Source of the DNA: Catajapyx aquilonaris
Lineage: Eukaryota
NCBI GenBank assembly: GCA_000934665.2
Contig: KZ539003.1
Span: forward strand, 1 to 36,863
Direction of reading: 5' to 3'
DNA: 36,863 nt
The translations under genes were made by a program, and so were the position numbers. The notes beneath the pieces are model-generated. The model searched no databases. It worked only from the letters and a program-made list of their open reading frames with translations, and was not told the DNA's origin. Below, in pieces: positions 3,863 to 33,146 of this stretch; position 1 is the first letter of the stretch, and each line of letters begins with the position of its first letter.

Positions 3863-5215
3863 CAGGGAAACCTGCCCTAATGGACCCTGGATACAGTGGA
3901 AACCTATCCATTACGGAATTTTCTCCTGGAACGACCATATGCATAGGGCATACAATGTATTTTTGACGGATATAACGGAACCTGCCCAACGCGTAAAACC
4001 AAAGGGATTTTTGGCTCTCTTCAGAGAAAATCCCTGTTCATAGCAGATATCAAAAGGTTAGCATTATATCTGCGAGTCACAAAAATAGAAACTAGAAATA
4101 GAACTATCGGTAATTCCAGGTGGCCTCTGAGTAACCCTTTTTGGACCACTGTGTGTCTAGTAATTTCTGGAATTGCTATGGTCTTGAAGATAAAGTGTGA
4201 GGTGAGGGGGACTATTTTTGGTTGCAAAAGTCGCAAATCGGCTTTCTGGACGGGCCAAGAAGATGTGACTCATGTGACTCGTAGGTGCCTCTTAGTTCAC
4301 GGTTCAGTCCAGTTATGTCGGGAAGACGAAGGGGTTAATGCCAGCTTGGAAACCCGGGGTAAATGTTCCCCTCCAAATAATGGGACTTACTACTCACGTA
4401 CTAAGCCACCACGTTGGGCGCCATTGTCATGCCCCTTCGTTACTTACCTCCAGGGCAAGGCCCGATCCACTCCTCTCAGGGGGGTTCCAATAATAAGTAC
4501 TAATAAGGTAATGATCACTTACACTCAGTGGCGGATCCAGGAATTTTTTCTGGGGGGGGGGGGGGGGGGGGGGCATTGGTGGCAAAAAGGTTCCCAAATA
4601 GAGGGAAAAATATTTCTTNGCAAAACGGAAAATAATTACCCATAGAACAGTGCAATTTGGCACTGTTCTAGAGGGTTTTTGCGCGTTTCCCCCCCCGTTT
4701 TTTTTTGTTTTTTCCCGTTTTTTCCCCTCTGGGGGAGCTCTTGGGGAGAGCACGTGCCCCCGTGCCCTCCCCCCCCCTAAATCCGCCACTGCTTACACTC
4801 CTTTATTCCTCCTTACACTTCTTATCCTGCCAACCCTCTCTTGGCCAACCCTCACTCCTCACTATCCCCCAGGGTATCCCCCTTGCCGCCGACCAGGGTA
4901 GCCAACAGTTACCAGGTCCTCCTGCCCACGCTACCCGGCCCTCACCGTTGCCAGCTCCTGCCACGTTGCCACACTCTTATACGTGGCAGGGTTCAACATA
5001 TTGCCCGAGTCCGGGCTGATGGTCCAATGGAGCAGGCAAAATGATGATTTTGCACCATATTGAGGTAATGTGATTATTTTTGCTCTCCCCATTTTCCTCT
5101 CTTTCTCGCGAGCAAAAAAAATGAGTAACGTCCTTGATCTGGTTATAGCGGAAACCTGTCCATAACGTAAAATTTTTGGGGTCCCGTGCAATTCTGCTAT
5201 ACACAGGTTTCACTG
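3863..5215. mobile_element. Degenerate pogo/Tigger-like non-autonomous element
   Basis: TACAGGGAAACCTG and TACAGTGGAAACCT at the left, CAGGTTTCACTG at the right, with repeated GGAA(A)CCTG-CC subterminal motifs. Boundaries are uncertain. Confidence 0.4.
4526..4791. mobile_element. hAT MITE (CAGTGGCGGAT family)
   Basis: TIR CAGTGGCGGAT/ATCCGCCACTG with 8-bp TSD CTTACACT (4518-4525, 4792-4799). G and C homopolymer runs inside. Confidence 0.9.
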
Positions 5216-6518: not shown

Positions 6519-7755
6519 CGAGGGCCGTACTAAAATGATTTACAAATTATTTTTTGGCCACAAATACAGTGCCCCTATAGGTCGGCAGATAGTCACATAT
6601 TATACAGGGTGGACGGAAAGTTTCGGACCCCCCCCNNCCCCCCCAGGTTTTTTAACCCTACTTTTCACAGCGTCTTTTCACATCTTTTAGAAGTCCACAA
6701 GCAGTTCTAATGTACACTTATCTTTTGAAGCATAATCTTGAGAACATCTGAGCACCTTCGCTCTTGCAATTCCATTAATAACTTCGCCTCTGTGACTCAT
6801 CTAAACATCCTATCTGTTTTGCGTTTATTTTGCTTGTTGCCATGGAGGACCCCTGGTCATATTCTGCGTCAGATAAGGTTTTTATGACCCTTTTCCATGA
6901 GTTCCCCTTCATGCAAATGTTGTGAACTCACTCCTGACCTTATTTTTCGCATTGGTCCATAACCTGATCCAATAAAAATTTGAAAAGGAATGCATGAAAT
7001 GGCGGACCCGGATGCATTACTTTCGAATTCTCACATTGGTACCATCACATTTGTCTCCACTTTTACTTTCAAATAATTTTTGGTGCGAAAGGACGTGAAA
7101 GAAAGGATGTGTCATGTTGATTAATTTACCAAGGTAGGACTGTTTACTGTCCTTTCCCACCAAAAATTTATTTTAAAGTAAAAATGGAGACAAATGTGAT
7201 GGTACCAATTCGAAAGTAATGCATCCGGGTCCGCCATTTAATGATTCCTTTTCAAATTTTTATTGGACCAGGTTATGGACCAATGCGAAAAATAAGGTCA
7301 GGAGTGAGTTCACAACATTTGCATGAGGGGAACTCATGGAAAAGGGTCATAAAAACCTTATCTGACGCAGAATATGACCAGGGGTCCACCAAGGCAACAA
7401 GCAAAATAAACGCAAAACAGATAGGATGTTTAGATGAGTCACAGAGGCGAAGTTATTAATGGAATTGCGAGAGCGAAGGTGCTCAGATGTTCTCAAGATT
7501 ATGCTTCAAAAGATAGTGTACATTAGAACTGCTTGTGGACTTTTAAAAGATGTGAAAAGACGCTGTGAAAAGTAGGGTTTAAAAACCTGGGGGGGGGTCC
7601 GAAACTTTCCGTCCACCGTGTAGATAGAATCCTCCTGGAGCCGAATACACCGGAGTCATTGGTGTGAAACCTCTCTGTGGCCTCCAGGAACCAATTTTTG
7701 GAGGTTCGGCGCACCCCTTCCCGGACAACTGCTTACAGTCAACAGTGTTCTCGAA
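6519..7755 (-). mobile_element. Truncated mariner 3' end (same family as 10661-14028), interrupted by the 6605-7620 palindrome
   Basis: TA|CGAGGGCCGTAC mariner-type terminus. 6519-6602 aligns with ~10661-10750, and 7621-7755 (AGAATCCTCCTGGAGCC...) aligns with ~10755-10885. Confidence 0.65.
6605..7620. mobile_element. ~1-kb fold-back MITE (CAGGGTG ends, TA TSD)
   Basis: TA|CAGGGTGGACGGAAAGTTTCGGACCCCC ... GGGGGTCCGAAACTTTCCGTCCACCGTG|TA. Arms of ~490 bp are nearly identical around a short loop at ~7095-7150. Confidence 0.9.
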
Positions 7756-8849: not shown

Positions 8850-10552
8850 CCTTACCCAAATCCCTTGGTTTACGCGCACCCCCCAGTTCACGAGTTTTTG
8901 CGGCGTAACTTGCATGAAAACTGGGTCAGTGATCATTTCTGCATAAAAAAAACGTGCGTTAACATGTCAGAAAGGAAATGCATGTGCCAATGGTTTGATT
9001 GGGTCCAAACACAAGGGTCACAATGGGTTCATATGATGGGCCACCCGATACACAGGGGAAGTAAAATTACGCGCATCCCCCTAACACACGATATCAGCAC
9101 TGTGTGGCCATGTGCCATTGCAAGGAAACGTAACTCCCATGATCCTCAGCCCATCTTGGCTATAAAAGGCATGATAAATCGCTGCCTATGACTCATCACA
9201 GCGAAGAACCATGGCGAGAAGAGCGTTGCCTGTTGCACTGAGAGAGATCATCATCAAAAGGCATCGGGATGGTGTTCCCCTTCGACAGATAGGCCGGGAA
9301 CTGTTGGTTCCAGAGTCTACAATACGCACGTTCCTAAAGCATTACAAGGCCACCGGAAAAGTTGAGCGGAAGAAAAGTCCAGGGCGACGAAAGTCGACAA
9401 CAGCACGAGAAGACCGGATGCTGCTCTGGATTGTTAGGAAAAAGAGACCAGGCTCTTTTTCGGATGCTGCAGCATTGTGGCAGGAAAGCCTGGGGCGTCC
9501 AATTTCTACAAAAATAATCATTAAGAGGCTGAAAGACAAGGGGTACTGGACCTACAAGTCTCAGAGGAAACCACTCATCACTCGAGTCCAGCAGAAATGG
9601 CGCTACCAATGGGCCCGGGACCATCTACACTGGACTACCAATGACTGGAAGAAGGTTATTTGGTCTGACGGATCACCATTTGAGGTGCTGTATGGAAACA
9701 TCGGTCGTAGAGTCATTCGGCAGAAGGGTGAAGGACTCTGAGGTGACTGCGTAAAAAAGGAGTGCAAGTTTCCTCTGAAGGTGGGTTTGTTAATCCTAAG
9801 TTATACCCGCAGTACGTCAACATCTTTATGCGCCCATTACAGGTGCAAATATGGGGATGTTTCCGACATCGTGCAGTGGGCAACATGGTCACGTACAGCA
9901 ATACCATCAATGCATGTCGGTACCAGGCCATCCTTCAGGATCATGTTCTGCCCTCCATTCCACGACTGATGTGCAGAAGCAAGTACAATTTCCAGCAGGA
10001 TGGCGCAACGGCGCATACTTCGCACACAACTAAGGCCTGGCTGCAGGGTCATAGGATCGAGGTTCTGGACTGGCCAGCCAATTCGCCAGACCTGAACCCT
10101 ATTGAGGATTTGTGGAAGGTTCTGAAGAAAATGGTCAGGCGGCGCAAGCCCAGGAACAAGGAGCAGTTGACGAGGGCCTTGGAGGAACAGTGGTGCAAAA
10201 TTCCTGCTGAGAAGTGCAGAGAACTGGTGGAAACCATGCCCCTGCATGTGAGGGACGTGTGTGCTGCTCGAGGAGGGCCGACCAAATGGCGACTTTTCGG
10301 GCATGTGCAGGATGTGCGTAATATTACTTCCCCTGTGTATTGGGTGCCTATCATGAACCCATTGTGACCCTGGACCCAATAAAACTATCGGCACATGCAT
10401 TTCCTTCCTGACATTTTTTTACACACGTTTTACACACGTTACGCACGTTTTTTACACAGAAATTATCACTGACCCATAGTTTTCATACGAGTTACGCCGC
10501 AAAAACTCGCGAACTGGGGGGTGCGCGCGTAAACCAAGGGATTTGGGTAAGG
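8850..10552 (+). mobile_element. Full-length Tc1-family (DD34E) transposon with ~230-bp TIRs
   Basis: TA|CCTTACCCAAATCCCTTGGTTTACGCGCAC ... GTGCGCGCGTAAACCAAGGGATTTGGGTAAGG|TA. TIR similarity extends to ~9075 and from ~10315. TATAAAA at ~9161 precedes the ATG. Confidence 0.93.
9211..10292 (+). pseudogene. Tc1 transposase with a 62-nt intron and a premature stop
   Basis: N-terminal HTH (RQIGRELLVPESTIR, SPGRRK), WSD, WGCF, QQDGA...SPDLNPIE (D-34-E spacing counted), GGPTKW end. In-frame TGA at 9739-9741. GT..AG intron 9781-9842 joins the two ORF-track frames. Confidence 0.85.
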
Positions 10553-13002: not shown

Positions 13003-13525
13003 CCATGGAGGTAGGAATACTATATGGGATGAGGTGGTGTCCCCTATCCCCACCATCCATATGAAAAATCGTCCTAGGGGGCGTGGCTTAATCTGGAACG
13101 GTGGCCATCTTACCATGGACCAGAAAGTAGCTGGGGGAGCCTACTTAGGTGTCAAGTTCGTGACGTCACACCACCTCCGTAGTTTCCTACCTCCATGCAG
13201 TGGCGGATTGGGGGGGTGGGGGGGGGACGGGCAAAGATGAGAAAATTAGAGGCCTCTGGCCTATTCACTGTTCCTTGGGCACAGGGGCACATCCCCCCCC
13301 CCCCAGAACTCCCCCAGAGGAAGAAAAAGGGNNNNNNNNNNNNNNNNNNNNNNNNNNNNNNNNNNNNNNNNNNNNNNNNNNNNNNNNNNNNCCCCCCCCC
13401 CGAGAGAAATTTTTGCATGCACCACTAACAGCGACAAATGTGGGCCCAAAGACACCTGTCTGCACAGGTCTCTATAAGCGCCCCCACCCCCGAAAAAATT
13501 TCTCGATCCGCCACTGCCTCCATGG
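13003..13525. mobile_element. Small TIR element (CCATGGAGGTAGGAA ends), right TIR interrupted by a hAT MITE
   Basis: CCATGGAGGTAGGAATACTA..GAGGTGGTGT vs ACACCACCTCCGTAGTTTCCTACCTCCATG(G). GCACAAACCTG occurs near both flanks but is not a clean TSD. Confidence 0.6.
13198..13516. mobile_element. hAT MITE (CAGTGGCGGAT family, related to 4526-4791)
   Basis: CAGTGGCGGAT/ATCCGCCACTG TIRs, 8-bp TSD CCTCCATG (13190-13197, 13517-13524). Contains a 60-N gap at 13332-13391. Confidence 0.88.
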
Positions 13526-16644: not shown

Positions 16645-16653
16645 TATATAAAA
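16645..16653 (+). promoter_or_regulatory. TATA box of LPMO paralog 1
   Basis: TATATAAAA ~55 nt upstream of the ATG at 16703. Confidence 0.55.
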
Positions 16654-16702
16654 CTGTTCACAAAACATTCCAAGCTTGATCGAAGCTACCCCCGACTACA
16701 CA

Positions 16703-17555
16703 ATGTCTGCTCTAAAATTTCTCCTTCCTTGTGCCCTCCTGATAGTAGGAGCCCTAGGCCATGGGAGAATGATGTTTCCACCTGCAAGAAATTCCATGTG
16801 GCGATTGGGATTCGACACACCTGTTAACTATGATGACTGCGGACTAAATTGTGGTGGTATTGACGTAAGTCTCCCTATACTATTGCAATTTAAGCATACC
16901 GTATAAGCATACTGTTCTGTTCAAAGGTTCAATGGAAACAAAATGACGGCAAATGTGGTGAATGTGGAGACGCTTATAACCTGCCTCGACCACGAGAAAA
17001 TGAAGACGGAGGAAAGTATGGAACTGGACTTATTGGCAACAAATACACCAAGGGCTCCGTGCTGGTGGCTGCCATTGACATTATCAGAAACCACAAAGGT
17101 TGGTTCGAATTCCGCATTTGCCCCAACAATGACGTAAAGAAGCCAGTCGAGCAGTCTTGTCTGGACCAGCATATTCTCCCAATTGTTGGCGCAACTGACT
17201 CTCCAACTCGCTTTCATCTGGAGGCACCATTCCCTGATGACCACTGGTACAATATCAGCCTTCAGCTTCCACCCGATCTCACCTGCACTCAGTGTGTCTT
17301 CCAGTGGTACTACAGAGCAGGTAACGTACTTGTTCCAAATGTTGAGTTTTTACACCATTGCATTGCTGTCACATACTCACTGGTCAATGGTGTTATGGTA
17401 ATGAGTGCATTTTATACCTTATTGCACATGTTAATATTGGTTCTTTAATTTTCTCTTCAGGCAACAATTGGGGTATCTGTCCCAATGGCACCGGCGCATT
17501 AGGTTGTGGACCACAGGAATCCATTGTCAATTGTGCCGACATTGGCATCTATTAA
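16703..17555 (+). CDS. Secreted AA15-type lytic polysaccharide monooxygenase (LPMO/chitin-binding type-4 fold), paralog 1, 216 aa
   Basis: Exons 16703-16864, 16927-17320, 17461-17555 (all GT-AG; 651 nt). Signal peptide MSALKFLLPCALLIVGALG, then His1 HGRMMFPPARNSMWRLGF; GKCGECGD; RNHKGWFEFRIC; CTQCVFQWYY; NNWGICPNG..GCGPQESIVNCADI. AATAAA at 17572. Confidence 0.93.
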
Positions 17556-18456
17556 GTCCAACTGTCTTGCTAATAAATACCGCAAAACTTGTAAATGTGT
17601 CACATAGCTAATGTTACTAAAATACTGCAAGCCTGCAGTTGCTGTTTTTCAGCAGGTGATAGTTCTGTTGTTGTACACAGCCTTGGAAACACGTAATCGA
17701 TCCGAATGGCTTGTGATATACACAAATGTTGCTCTCTGTAGGCCTTTCTCGATACTAATAAAATATTATGTCAATAAGATTTGAGGTCTTTATTTACATT
17801 GAGGTCTAATGTGAAGGGTTACATAATTATAACAAATTCCATTGAAGACAAATAAAGTTCAAGATGAAGATTAGTACAAGATGTAGGCTATATGTGATAA
17901 CGACATATTGTAATGTACTCTACACGAACGTATAATAAAAATTACACAGGTGCAGCACTAATTGGTGAATATAAGTTAATACTAAATTAACTGCACTCAG
18001 CATTGTAAATTATTTTCTGGTTGACTCTCCTGACGGGCATTGTAGTGATGCAAGAAAACTTCATTATTGAAGAGACCGAAGTGTTTTTGTGAAGTCACAC
18101 GGACATTTTCGAACTGAAAGTATACAAAGAGAATGAGCATGTAATCTTGATGCACTGAAATTCTTTACGCTTATAATGTTTGCTTTGTAATGCGCATACC
18201 AATCGAACACTGGTGTATTTGCATCTGGAAAAAAGAGCCGTACCTTATGAGAGTGCAGCAATCAACATGCACTCTAACAATAATTGAATCAGCTCGCCAT
18301 AAAATTTATTTATTCATACTTATATTAGCATTTATCGTTTTTATTTGTTACCTTTTACCTCTTTGCAGGAACTTTAAATCATTATACATTGCCCAAGTCA
18401 CCAGTTCTAAAGATGGATAGGGAGACAAGTTATACGGATTGTTTACCCCAGTAACC

Positions 18457-19482: not shown

Positions 19483-19963
19483 CAGTAAAACTTCTATAAG
19501 CCAAATCTCCATGGGACCTGAAAAAACCTCGAGTTATAGAATATTCGAGTTAGAGAATTATGGATATTCTAAAGCACATAACTCAATAAGGAAGCCCATA
19601 TATACCTTTATATCCAGCGACGAAAGGTGTTCAAAACTTAAAAATAACTGTCACTATCACACTTACAATGTTCCTCGTTGCTTTGTTGTTAAAAAAAACT
19701 CCGTTATGGGCATTTGCCTACTCTTAGATTCAAGGATTCAATAGTCCCAATCGAGTCAAACACTTAACTTTCGGTGCGTCTGGTAGACGGAGATCAGGAA
19801 ATCGAGCCTTTCTGTACACGTGGCCTACTCTCGACCCTTCGGTTGGGAAATGAGAAAATTTTCCGTACTCGCCAACATGAACTTCGACTTAGGGAGACTG
19901 AAAATGCATTGATATCCCATCGTAAGGCCCTGCCTGCACTTCCAGTTATGGAGAACTTCGAGT

Positions 19964-20046
<83 letters not shown>

Positions 20047-22559: not shown

Positions 22560-23331
22560 ATGAAACTCCTTCTCTTCATCGTTGCTACCTCTATGGTGGC
22601 TGTAGAAGTCAGCAGCCATGGATATATACTGGAACCACCAAGCAGGTCATCCATGTGGCGTGTGGGATACAAAACACCTATCAACTGGGATGATGATGGC
22701 CTGAACTGCGGCAATGTTCCGGTATTATAGCACAGCCCTTGGTATATGAAGACACGTTAATATAATTTTTGATATTCAGACAGAAGATGGGCATGGAAAG
22801 TGTGGCGAGTGTGGAGATCCCTGGGCTGACCCCCGACCCCGAGAAAATGAAGATGGAGGCAAGTATGGCCTTGGAATTATCACCAGGAACTACCAGAAAG
22901 GACAGGATATCAACATCACAATTCATTTGACCACTAATCATATGGGCTGGTTTGAATTCCGTCTCTGTCCCAACAATAACGTCAAGAAACCTGTGGAGCA
23001 ATCGTGCCTCGACCAAAATCTTTTGGAAATGGCTGATGGCTCTGGTACTCGTTTCCATCTCAAGAACAAGCATGAAGAGGAAAATGACTGGTTTTATTTC
23101 CAAATCAAGCTTCCGGCTGACCTCACCTGCACACAGTGTGTTCTTCAATGGCACTGGCAATGTGGTATGATATTATGCCATTTTTATATCGTGTCCTGCT
23201 CTGCAAAAATAACTAAATACTCTCTACCATTTACAGCAAACAGTTGGGGTATTTGTCCTGATGGTCATGGTGCTATGGGATGTGGTCCACAAGAAACCTT
23301 CCGCAACTGCGTCGATGTTGCCATCCAGTAA
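22560..23331 (+). CDS. Secreted AA15-type LPMO, paralog 2, 213 aa
   Basis: Exons 22560-22721, 22780-23164, 23237-23331 (642 nt). Signal MKLLLFIVATSMVAVEVSS, then HGYILEPPSRSSMWRVGY; LTTNHMGWFEFRLC; ANSWGICPDG..GCGPQETFRNCVDVAIQ. AATAAA at 23366. Confidence 0.92.
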
Positions 23332-28823: not shown

Positions 28824-29736
28824 ATGAGGCTTGTCTACCTACTTGCCTTGGTGACATGGATGGTAGCTGAAATTTCAGGTAAGGCCACTAGGCATAACTT
28901 ATTCCTGCAGTCATAATTACCACTGTAATTATTTTCAGGACACGGTTACATGGAGGACCCTCCCAATCGATCCTCCATGTGGCGATTTGGATACCATACA
29001 CCCGTTGACTATGATGACAATGGTCTCAACTGTGGTGGAGTCGGAGTAAGTATATGAAATATCTGGGAGTCCTGTTACTTCAAAGGTAACCCTGAAACCA
29101 ATGAGCATGCAAAAATTCCCTGCTGCAGTTACCGGTCAAATAACATGCTTCCAACTATAGTAGCCACAGTAACAAATACTGTATTTTTCACAGACACAGT
29201 GGCAGGTGAACAACGGGAAATGCGGCGAATGTGGCGACCCCTACAATGTGCCGCGTCCACGTCCAAATGAAGATGGAGGCAAATTTGGTCTGGGAATCAT
29301 CACCCGCAATTACACTCAGGGACAAGCGATCACTTTGAAGCTGCTGCTCACCAGGACCCACAAAGGATGGTTTGAATTCAGAATCTGTCCCAATAACAAC
29401 GTCAAAAAGCCAGTTGAGCAATCGTGCTTAGACAAATACCTTCTTCAATTGGCTGACGGATCTGGCTCCCGGTTCTACCCAACTGGTCAAAGCCCTGTTA
29501 CCTTTAACATCCCTCTTCAACTCCCACAAGGACTCACATGCAGCCAGTGTGTGATGCAGTGGCACTATCATACAGGTAATAATTCATTTAGAATCTCAAA
29601 ACTGGACATTCAACTTATTGTTGTCACTGTCTTTATTGTAGCCAACAGCTGGGGGAAATGTCCCAATGGCACCGAGGCTATGGGCTGTGGTCCACAAGAA
29701 ACCTTCCGCAACTGTGCCGATGTTGCAATCATGTAG
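28824..29736 (+). CDS. Secreted AA15-type LPMO, paralog 3, 212 aa
   Basis: Exons 28824-28878, 28939-29045, 29194-29575, 29642-29736 (639 nt). Signal MRLVYLLALVTWMVAEISG, then HGYMEDPPNRSSMWRFGY; LLTRTHKGWFEFRIC; ANSWGKCPNG..GCGPQETFRNCADVAIM. AATAAA at 29775. Confidence 0.93.
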
Positions 29737-32381: not shown

Positions 32382-33146
32382 ATGTATCTCCTGCCCGTCA
32401 TTGCGTGCGTGCTTCTGGCCGTCCAAGTGAATGGCCATGGCTACATGGTTGACCCTCCAAGCAGATCCTCTATGTGGCGATTCGGTTACCATACGCCAAT
32501 AAACTACGATGACAACCAGCTGTTCTGTGGAGGCTTTGATGTAGGTTATTGTTTCAATTTTATGACATCATTAAAACATGTTTGTTTTTCACAGAGGCAG
32601 TGGACCCAAAACAACGGCAAATGTGGAGAATGTGGCGATCCCTGGGATCTGCCCCGTCCCCGAGAAAATGAAGATGGTGGTACATACGGACTGGGAATCA
32701 TCACCAGAAATTATACCAAAGGCCAAAAAATTGACATATCTGTCGACCTGACGGCCAATCACAGAGGATTCTTCCAGTTCCGAATCTGCCCAAACAATGA
32801 CATCAAGAAGCCTGTGGAGCAATCCTGCCTGGACCAGCATCTGTTGGTGTTGGGTGACGGTTCCGGAACTAATTTGCCCATCATAAATGGCAACAAGGGA
32901 ATATGGAAAGGTCAATTTCAACTACCCAAGGATTTAACTTGCACTCAATGTGTAATGCAATGGTATTACCATACAAGTACGTATGAATGTTGATGTGCAT
33001 TGATATGTATATTAGCCTGTAATTAACACCATAATTTTTCATGATATGCAGATACTCACTGGGGTACCTGTCCAAATGGAACCCAGGCTGACGGATGTGG
33101 GCCGCAGGAGACTTTCATTAATTGCGCCGACGTCGCCATCTACTAA
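32382..33146 (+). CDS. Secreted AA15-type LPMO, paralog 4 (most canonical), 211 aa
   Basis: Exons 32382-32540, 32595-32976, 33052-33146 (636 nt). Signal MYLLPVIACVLLAVQVNG, then HGYMVDPPSRSSMWRFGY..NYDDNQLFCGGF; LTANHRGFFQFRIC; NTHWGTCPNG..GCGPQETFINCADVAIY. TATTTAA at ~32323; AATAAA at 33188. Confidence 0.94.

Follow-up and report, generated by a model that had tools for sequence, protein, structure and literature searches.

The role of the Tyr or Phe residue that lies axial to the copper of lytic polysaccharide monooxygenases (LPMOs) is debated. Tuning of the copper, protection from self-oxidation, and packing have all been considered, and the question has usually been probed with engineered mutants. 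Here we describe a natural variant from Catajapyx aquilonaris, a gene designated paralog 1, the first of four tandem genes of the LPMO family AA15 in a stretch of 36,863 nucleotides (contig KZ539003.1 of GenBank assembly GCA_000934665.2, forward strand; below, the window). Its predicted product has the two histidines that would bind the copper, together with Ile at the position of the axial aromatic residue, Arg at the position two residues before the second His, where Ala is commonest, and Ile immediately before that Arg.

Published studies describe several systems with which this gene can be compared. TdAA15A of Thermobia domestica has a histidine brace formed by His1 and His91, a non-coordinating Tyr184 in the axial position, and an Ala89 near the copper, like AA10s, and ten cysteines are conserved in AA15 (Sabbadin et al. 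2018, PMC5823890). In the same source, the legend of Fig. 5 mentions an axial Thr in one AA15; the sequence carrying it was not found, and Phe is the axial residue of the Hyalella sequence and of the final two Anopheles sequences given in part 5 of its supplement 1. The residues listed as critical in insect LPMO15-1 (TcLPMO15-1 and LmLPMO15-1) are His, Tyr, Ala, His, Trp, and Phe, and a role in moulting was shown for the LPMO15-1 genes (Qu et al. 2022, PMC9156745). All LPMOs are said to carry Tyr or Phe at the axial place, and cellulose-active AA10s such as ScAA10C have an Arg-Glu-Phe second-sphere motif in which the head group of the Arg is near the Glu (PMC11137697). L110, T111, A112, and H114 of SmAA10A (CBP21) from Serratia marcescens respond to chitin in nuclear magnetic resonance (PMC4144037). 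The fungal X325/Bim1 proteins, which have a histidine brace and an LPMO-like fold, are proposed to have a copper-handling rather than a lytic role (PMC10952591).

The translation of each exon of paralog 1 matched one solved structure, TdAA15A (5msz_A), in HMMER searches. Residues 20-54, from exon 1, aligned to residues 1-35 of the structure (E 1.6e-08), the 131 amino acids of exon 2 matched residues 36-161 (E 1.4e-35), and the 30 amino acids of exon 3 matched residues 164-192 (E 2.5e-06). The three exons jointly cover residues 1-192, and the alignments are gap-free around both copper-site motifs, with His20 at His1, Arg108 at Ala89, His110 at His91, Glu205 at Glu182, and Ile207 at Tyr184. Furthermore, the Pfam LPMO_10 model scored 37.6 bits on paralog 1 (cut-off 23), and the protein nested among AA15 homologues in a tree.

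Most of the residues that characterize the family are present. His20 directly follows a hydrophobic leader (residues 1-19, ending Ala-Leu-Gly) and is the predicted first residue of the mature protein. The second copper-binding histidine is His110, in a column that is His in 79/79 complete domains of the family. The second-sphere pair Gln204 (76/79) and Glu205 (78/79), the core Trp181 (79/79), and the platform residues Tyr43 and Trp189 are retained, as are all ten family cysteines (Cys50, 64, 67, 119, 132, 174, 177, 192, 201, and 210). Two features are lacking: the aromatic residue of the motif Q-E-x-[FY], which is Ile207, and the small residue two before the second His, a feature that is not strict in the family, which is Arg108. 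On the evidence of these alignments, paralog 1 is an AA15-family protein with the LPMO fold by descent, as distinct from a demonstrated LPMO enzyme, and can be regarded as a rare form within an established enzyme family.

A first-pass annotation of the window, made from its letters and open reading frames, had read paralog 1 as having the LPMO fold, with the Glu and the two brace histidines retained, Ile at the axial position, and Arg at the Ala position. Its further proposal, an altered redox chemistry or regioselectivity or else a non-lytic binding role, is a hypothesis. The alignments to His1, His91, Glu182, Tyr184, and Ala89 of TdAA15A bear out each structural part of that reading, and the motifs on which it was based are present as described (IIRNHKG and QESIVNC in paralog 1, QETF(R/I)NC in the other three copies, and LTANHRG in paralog 4). 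The range that it gave, 16927..17555, correctly takes in exons 2 and 3 but omits exon 1 (16703-16864), with the signal peptide and His1.

The frequency of the unusual residues was surveyed in two samples. Sample A consisted of the best 150, as representatives of 50%-identity clusters, of 1836 proteins found with exon 2 in an exhaustive search (E ≤0.001), to which the hits of a word-indexed search were added, for a total of 165 domain rows from 158 proteins. Sample B consisted of 71 rows from a search seeded with P0106, a protein of sample A, and is biased to relatives of that protein. In the 113 rows of sample A in which the axial column was filled and the following Cys was aligned, the residue was Phe in 103, Tyr in 6, and Trp, Val, Ile, and His in 1 each. 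Phe accounted for 80 of the 85 rows that also had both histidines, Tyr for 4, and Val for 1, and the 79 complete domains had Phe in 75 and Tyr in 4. The filled rows of sample B (n = 53) had Phe in 47, Ile in 3, Tyr in 2, and Val in 1.

The individual exceptions were inspected. The axial Val belongs to a spider protein, P0014, which was rejected as a faulty gene model; it resembles a 69%-identical relative up to the last intron, at the conserved phase-1 position, and exactly from there on its sequence is unrelated. The last exon of this public AA15 model is therefore wrong, and the model mimics a protein without the Q-E-x-F motif. P0022 (axial His) was rejected for a truncated or misaligned tail, and domain 1 of P0012 (axial Trp) as a degenerate domain in which His1 is replaced by Tyr. 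The Ile row of sample A is P0106, in which both brace histidines are gone. The Ile and Val rows of sample B are P0106; P0160, which is 83% identical to it; P0161, in which His1 is replaced by Arg and the second His by Lys; and P0213, a fragment without its N terminus that retains T-A-N-H. Thus, a non-aromatic axial residue with an intact brace was found in 0/84 other usable domains of sample A, and no full-length case was found in either sample. The first-pass annotation had proposed that the loss of the axial aromatic be counted among AA15s; by this count, an axial Ile in a brace-bearing AA15 is very rare.

The Arg is less special than the axial Ile. Among the 157 rows of sample A with the second His, the position two before it was Ala in 117, Thr in 15, Ser in 12, Val in 5, and Lys in 4, with Gly, His, Asn, and Gln in one apiece and Arg in none. 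The first-pass annotation had called this Ala conserved; it is indeed the commonest residue, but the description is overstated, in that Thr, Ser, Val, and Lys occur. Its comparison had also been made with paralog 4 only, and two of the three sister genes are without Ala, paralog 2 having Thr and paralog 3 Arg (AGG). A long basic residue appears to be tolerated at this position, as paralog 3 has Arg in an otherwise canonical site. The sea slug proteins P0098, P0146, and P0168 have Lys there. P0098 and P0168, from sacoglossans, combine the Lys with a canonical Q-E-x-F motif, and P0146 ends before the motif; among the three proteins, His1 is visible in P0168 alone. The sites of P0098 and P0168 therefore indicate that a long basic residue has been kept across species in at least one lineage.

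The residue preceding the Ala column is Thr in 145/157 rows and Ile in none, and Ile107 of paralog 1 is a third change at the copper site, which the first-pass annotation had missed. Another residue absent from the family is Cys46; its column has Asn in 52/79 domains and Cys in 0/79. With eleven cysteines, paralog 1 may have one that is unpaired, its thiol free at or close to the binding face.

The sister genes provide a context for these changes. A tblastn search of the window with the product of paralog 1 located four tandem copies on the + strand at approximately 16.7, 22.6, 28.9, and 32.4 kb. The two intron positions of paralog 1, and their phases, are shared by paralogs 2-4, and a further intron of 60 nt interrupts the signal peptide of paralog 3 only. 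The four copies have four types of copper site: Thr-Ala...Phe in paralog 4, Thr-Thr...Phe in paralog 2, Thr-Arg...Phe in paralog 3, and Ile-Arg...Ile in paralog 1. Only the site of paralog 4 is fully canonical.

In a quick maximum-likelihood tree of 74 rows, the four paralogs formed one group (SH-aLRT 91, not starred), which adjoins two decapod crustacean proteins (support 89). It follows from this placement that Phe is the ancestral residue at position 207 and Ile the derived one. The Ile207 codon, ATT, is one base from TTC or TTT. Synonymous differences among the paralogs are saturated (proportion of synonymous differences, pS, 0.75-0.85); the duplications are old, and no ratio of nonsynonymous to synonymous rates (dN/dS) can be derived.

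Outside the copper site, the degree of conservation of paralog 1 matches that of its siblings. At the 43 columns with one residue in at least 90% of the 79 complete domains, paralog 1 departs at 2 (Thr107Ile and Phe207Ile), compared with 1, 0, and 1 for paralogs 2, 3, and 4, respectively. At the 96 columns held at 60% or more, the departures of paralogs 1, 2, 3, and 4 number 15, 17, 14, and 11. Five residues of paralog 1, Cys46, Asn92, Ile107, Arg108, and Ile207, are absent from all 79 domains. Their concentration around the copper site is no more than suggestive.

Our preferred reading is that paralog 1 is a maintained AA15-family copper protein whose copper surroundings were remodelled after an old tandem duplication. 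We judge the chances to be about even that the protein still binds copper and oxidises polysaccharide with a changed reactivity and substrate contact, in which case it would be a sub- or neofunctionalised copy and not a dead one. Under such a scheme, cleavage of the signal peptide after Gly19 would expose His20, the amino group and side chain of which, together with His110, would hold one copper as a histidine brace. Tyr43 and Trp189 would form a flat platform on a chitin-like polymer, Gln204 and Glu205 would position the oxygen co-substrate, and Trp181 would be the nearby redox-active aromatic residue. Beneath the copper, Ile207 would provide an aliphatic, non-coordinating floor in place of Phe or Tyr, so that the buried side would stay hydrophobic but the ring would be gone. 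On the substrate-facing side, Ile107 and Arg108 would replace Thr and Ala, putting a long cationic chain where a methyl group limits access to the copper. Arg108 might lie over the axial position that is open, contact the substrate, or form a pair with Glu205 like that in the Arg-Glu-Phe motif of some AA10s.

The axial Phe of SmAA10A is approximately 4 Å from the copper and is not the hole acceptor, a part that is played by the conserved Trp (PMC11087555). Because Trp, and not Phe, accepts the hole in AA10s, an aliphatic floor may be tolerated with some shift in copper reactivity and in stability. We hold it possible, though doubtful, that oxidative polysaccharide chemistry proceeds in paralog 1 with no aromatic residue under the copper, where Ile207 would lie, with Arg108 over it, Ile107 flanking, and the unpaired Cys46 near. 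If true, the second-sphere arrangement would be one undescribed in any LPMO family and would contradict the published rule of Tyr or Phe in all LPMOs, and the cationic lid might indicate a non-crystalline or anionic substrate, not crystalline chitin.

Several observations weigh against a remodelled but working copper site. The axial aromatic is near universal, being present in 84/85 brace-bearing rows, the single exception being the faulty spider model. The other genuine cases of Ile or Val are the fragment P0213 and three proteins, P0106, P0160, and P0161, from each of which at least one brace histidine is missing; loss of the aromatic elsewhere therefore accompanies loss of the copper site. 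Ala and Phe are among the residues called essential in insect LPMO15-1 (Qu et al., PMC9156745), and even an exchange of Tyr for Phe can cut activity approximately 100-fold in one AA10 (PMC11137697). No ortholog of paralog 1 was found in the word-indexed search with exon 2 (9 hits from 13 candidates, the best 53% identical) or in the exhaustive search (1836 hits at E ≤0.001, the best 150 examined, the best 54% identical). Departures were not significantly enriched at the six positions called critical (2/6 given 15/96; p 0.24, post hoc), and residues never seen in the family reached a p of 0.03 there (2/6 given 5/96), also in a post hoc comparison.

The leading alternative, which we consider less likely, is that paralog 1 is non-catalytic, a chitin- or copper-binding protein that has kept the flat face and the LPMO fold and may have kept the copper. 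Such a protein might, again tentatively, be a parallel to the fungal X325/Bim1 proteins or an early stage of the brace-less AA15-like proteins. The chief argument for this alternative is that every other genuine axial Ile or Val, bar that of the fragment P0213, occurs in a brace-less protein (P0106, P0160, and P0161). Moreover, paralog 1 differs from insect LPMO15-1 at two of its six residues described as critical for catalysis (PMC9156745), histidine-brace proteins with transport rather than lytic roles exist (PMC10952591), and the bulky Arg beside the copper could hold a crystalline surface off. However, in the brace-less P0106, P0160, and P0161 the invariant Trp is gone as well, LQF standing where QW would be, whereas paralog 1 retains it; this is the chief argument against. 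The residues of oxygen chemistry, Gln204, Glu205, and Trp181, are all retained, and Arg or Lys is found at the same position in paralog 3 and the mollusc group in sites that are otherwise canonical. An inactive paralog 1 would exemplify, in an animal, the conversion of an LPMO into a binding protein, one stage ahead of the brace-less AA15-like proteins of other invertebrates.

It seems unlikely that the copper site is canonical in three dimensions, with another aromatic residue filling the axial pocket and the Ile reflecting repacking of the core. Candidates for such a residue are Phe179, two before Trp181, where the family mostly has Leu (Phe in 11/79), and Phe25, in a column of Asp or Glu with an aromatic residue in 1/79; the changes Thr107Ile and Phe207Ile would add and remove volume, respectively. 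However, Phe179 is not particular to paralog 1, and the gap-free alignment to 5MSZ at both sites indicates that the backbone under the copper is that of residue 207.

Decay under relaxed selection, with the changes in the copper site as early damage, would also account for a divergent copy. The end branch of paralog 1 is the longest of the four (0.84 versus 0.44-0.58), its identity to its siblings is the lowest (53-57%, compared with 61-62% among the siblings), and neither the word-indexed nor the exhaustive search found an ortholog. However, the reading frame is open, the splice sites are intact, a spliced contig exists, and 41/43 of the highly conserved columns are kept. Nonsynonymous differences between paralog 1 and its siblings (0.26-0.28; 0.225-0.237 among the siblings) are far under the saturated synonymous divergence. 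Tajima relative-rate tests with two outgroups detected no significant speed-up (m1 22-27 versus m2 18-27; p ≥0.24) in 6 comparisons, of 12 planned. Thus, decay seems very unlikely, and we regard paralog 1 as a live, spliced gene under apparent long-term constraint with no sign of decay.

Errors of sequencing or assembly in the Ile and Arg codons, which the first-pass annotation had named as a possible refutation of its reading, are close to refuted already: assembled contigs, rather than raw reads, of four runs from two studies (X1, X2, X4, and X5, of the five runs that contain the stretch) have 0 other letters over positions 16650-17620, at the Ile207 and Arg108 codons included, although X1, X2, and X4 share a sample from which the window itself may derive, so that only X5, from the second study, is independent. 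The contigs of X1, X2, and X4 span the whole of this region, introns included, with 0 differences. A second contig of X5 (record 8) matches the conserved segment 16987-17021 with 3 differences. Its flanks carry the letters of paralog 2, and therefore paralog 2 is also represented in that run.

The X5 contig of paralog 1, which is 933 letters long and starts at 16671, joins the three exons exactly at their GT..AG borders with 0 differences. Paralog 1 has a 216-amino-acid product, an open frame, and GT..AG at every splice border, and the gene model and its spliced form are thus supported independently of the assembly. A tblastn search located a single C-terminal exon for paralog 1, and thus no alternative last exon with Phe between positions 17555 and 22560. 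The positions of its parts and of the sister genes are collected in the table.

Table. Features of paralog 1 and its sister genes (positions are those of the window)
Feature	Position	Strand	Description
5' untranslated region	16671..16702	+	starts at the first base of the spliced X5 contig (record 7)
Exon 1, coding	16703..16864	+	signal peptide residues 1-19 (ending ALG), mature His20-Asp54; end confirmed by joint 16864>16927
His20 codon	16760..16762	+	predicted first mature residue
Cys46 codon TGC	16838..16840	+	eleventh cysteine, three residues past platform Tyr43
Intron 1	16865..16926	+	62 nt, GT..AG, phase 0; skipped in the X5 contig, present in X1, X2, and X4
Exon 2	16927..17320	+	131 amino acids; AA15 domain core with second brace histidine
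Codons ATT ATC AGA AAC CAC	17080..17094	+	in motif IIRNHKG
Codons ATC AGA AAC CAC	17083..17094	+	Ile107, Arg108, Asn109, His110; family consensus Thr-Ala-Asn-His
Intron 2	17321..17460	+	140 nt, GT..AG, phase 1; X5 contig joint 17317>17458 (cut +3), equal to 17320/17461; frame checked
Exon 3	17461..17555	+	C-terminal strand Gln204-Glu205-Ser206-Ile207; stop codon 17553-17555
Codons CAG GAA TCC ATT	17514..17525	+	in motif QESIVNC
Codon ATT, Ile207	17523..17525	+	position of axial Tyr184 of TdAA15A; Phe (TTC) in paralogs 2-4
3' untranslated region	17556..17805	+	AATAAA 17757-17762; end approximate; X5 contig extends 185 letters past 17620
Paralog 2	22560..23331	+	exons 22560-22721, 22780-23164, 23237-23331; LTTNH, QETF
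Paralog 3	28824..29736	+	exons 28824-28878, 28939-29045, 29194-29575, 29642-29736; LTRTH, QETF
Paralog 3, extra intron	28879..28938	+	60 nt, inside signal peptide
Paralog 4	32382..33146	+	exons 32382-32540, 32595-32976, 33052-33146; LTANH, QETF

The window is eukaryotic DNA with spliced genes, and several features outside the LPMO genes were also observed. A remnant of a Tc1/mariner-type transposon is present at 9178-10364 on the + strand, with matches to HTH_Tnp_Tc3_2 (E 4.7e-13) and DDE_3 (E 5.4e-15). The reading frames of the two matches differ, which means that one or more frame changes disrupt the transposase. A trinucleotide microsatellite at approximately 19950-20040 (+), between paralogs 1 and 2, gives approximately 27 Asn codons in a reading frame. 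The G+C content is 0.41-0.49 in the first 14 kb and 0.34-0.42 in the LPMO array. There is an assembly gap of 60 N at 13332-13391, and single or double N are found at 4619, 6636-6637, and 28422.

The locus constitutes a natural matched set of four sister genes, 53-62% identical, with four types of copper site. Side-by-side expression of the four paralogs could separate the contributions of the Ala and of the aromatic residue in an animal LPMO, and the genes bear on whether polysaccharide cleavage is still possible when a histidine brace has no aromatic floor. A bench test is worthwhile because the locus itself supplies the controls.

Comparison with described systems shows in which respects paralog 1 is conventional. 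It resembles TdAA15A (5MSZ, PMC5823890) in size and cysteine pattern and in His1, His91, Glu182, and the platform Tyr24, which correspond to His20, His110, Glu205, and Tyr43, respectively. It differs in the replacement of Tyr184 by Ile207 and of Ala89 by Arg108, in two small insertions in surface loops, and in the extra Cys46. The other platform residue of TdAA15A, Tyr166, corresponds to Trp189 in paralog 1, as in most AA15s. Compared with insect LPMO15-1 and the chitin-specific TdAA15B, paralog 1 has 4/6 critical residues, being without the Ala and the Phe, and is also without the cysteine-rich C-terminal extension. Paralogs 2-4 share the Phe-type site with those proteins.

The brace-less P0106, P0160, and P0161 have an axial Ile or Val in common with paralog 1, but paralog 1 keeps both histidines and the Trp. 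These three proteins look like a small lineage of copper-less 'pseudo-LPMOs', the nearest named relatives of which are rotifer proteins. X325/Bim1 is an unrelated family, in which Asp occupies the fourth copper position, and is likened to paralog 1 by its published description and not by sequence. By our own reading of the motifs, the AA15 consensus LTANH would be the same stretch as L-T-A-x-H of SmAA10A, the chitin-active model of family AA10; paralog 1 reads I-I-R-N-H there and has Ile instead of the axial Phe. Arg108 beside Glu205 could give a pair similar to that of AA10s such as ScAA10C; in that family, however, a different region of the chain contributes the Arg, which invariably accompanies Phe.

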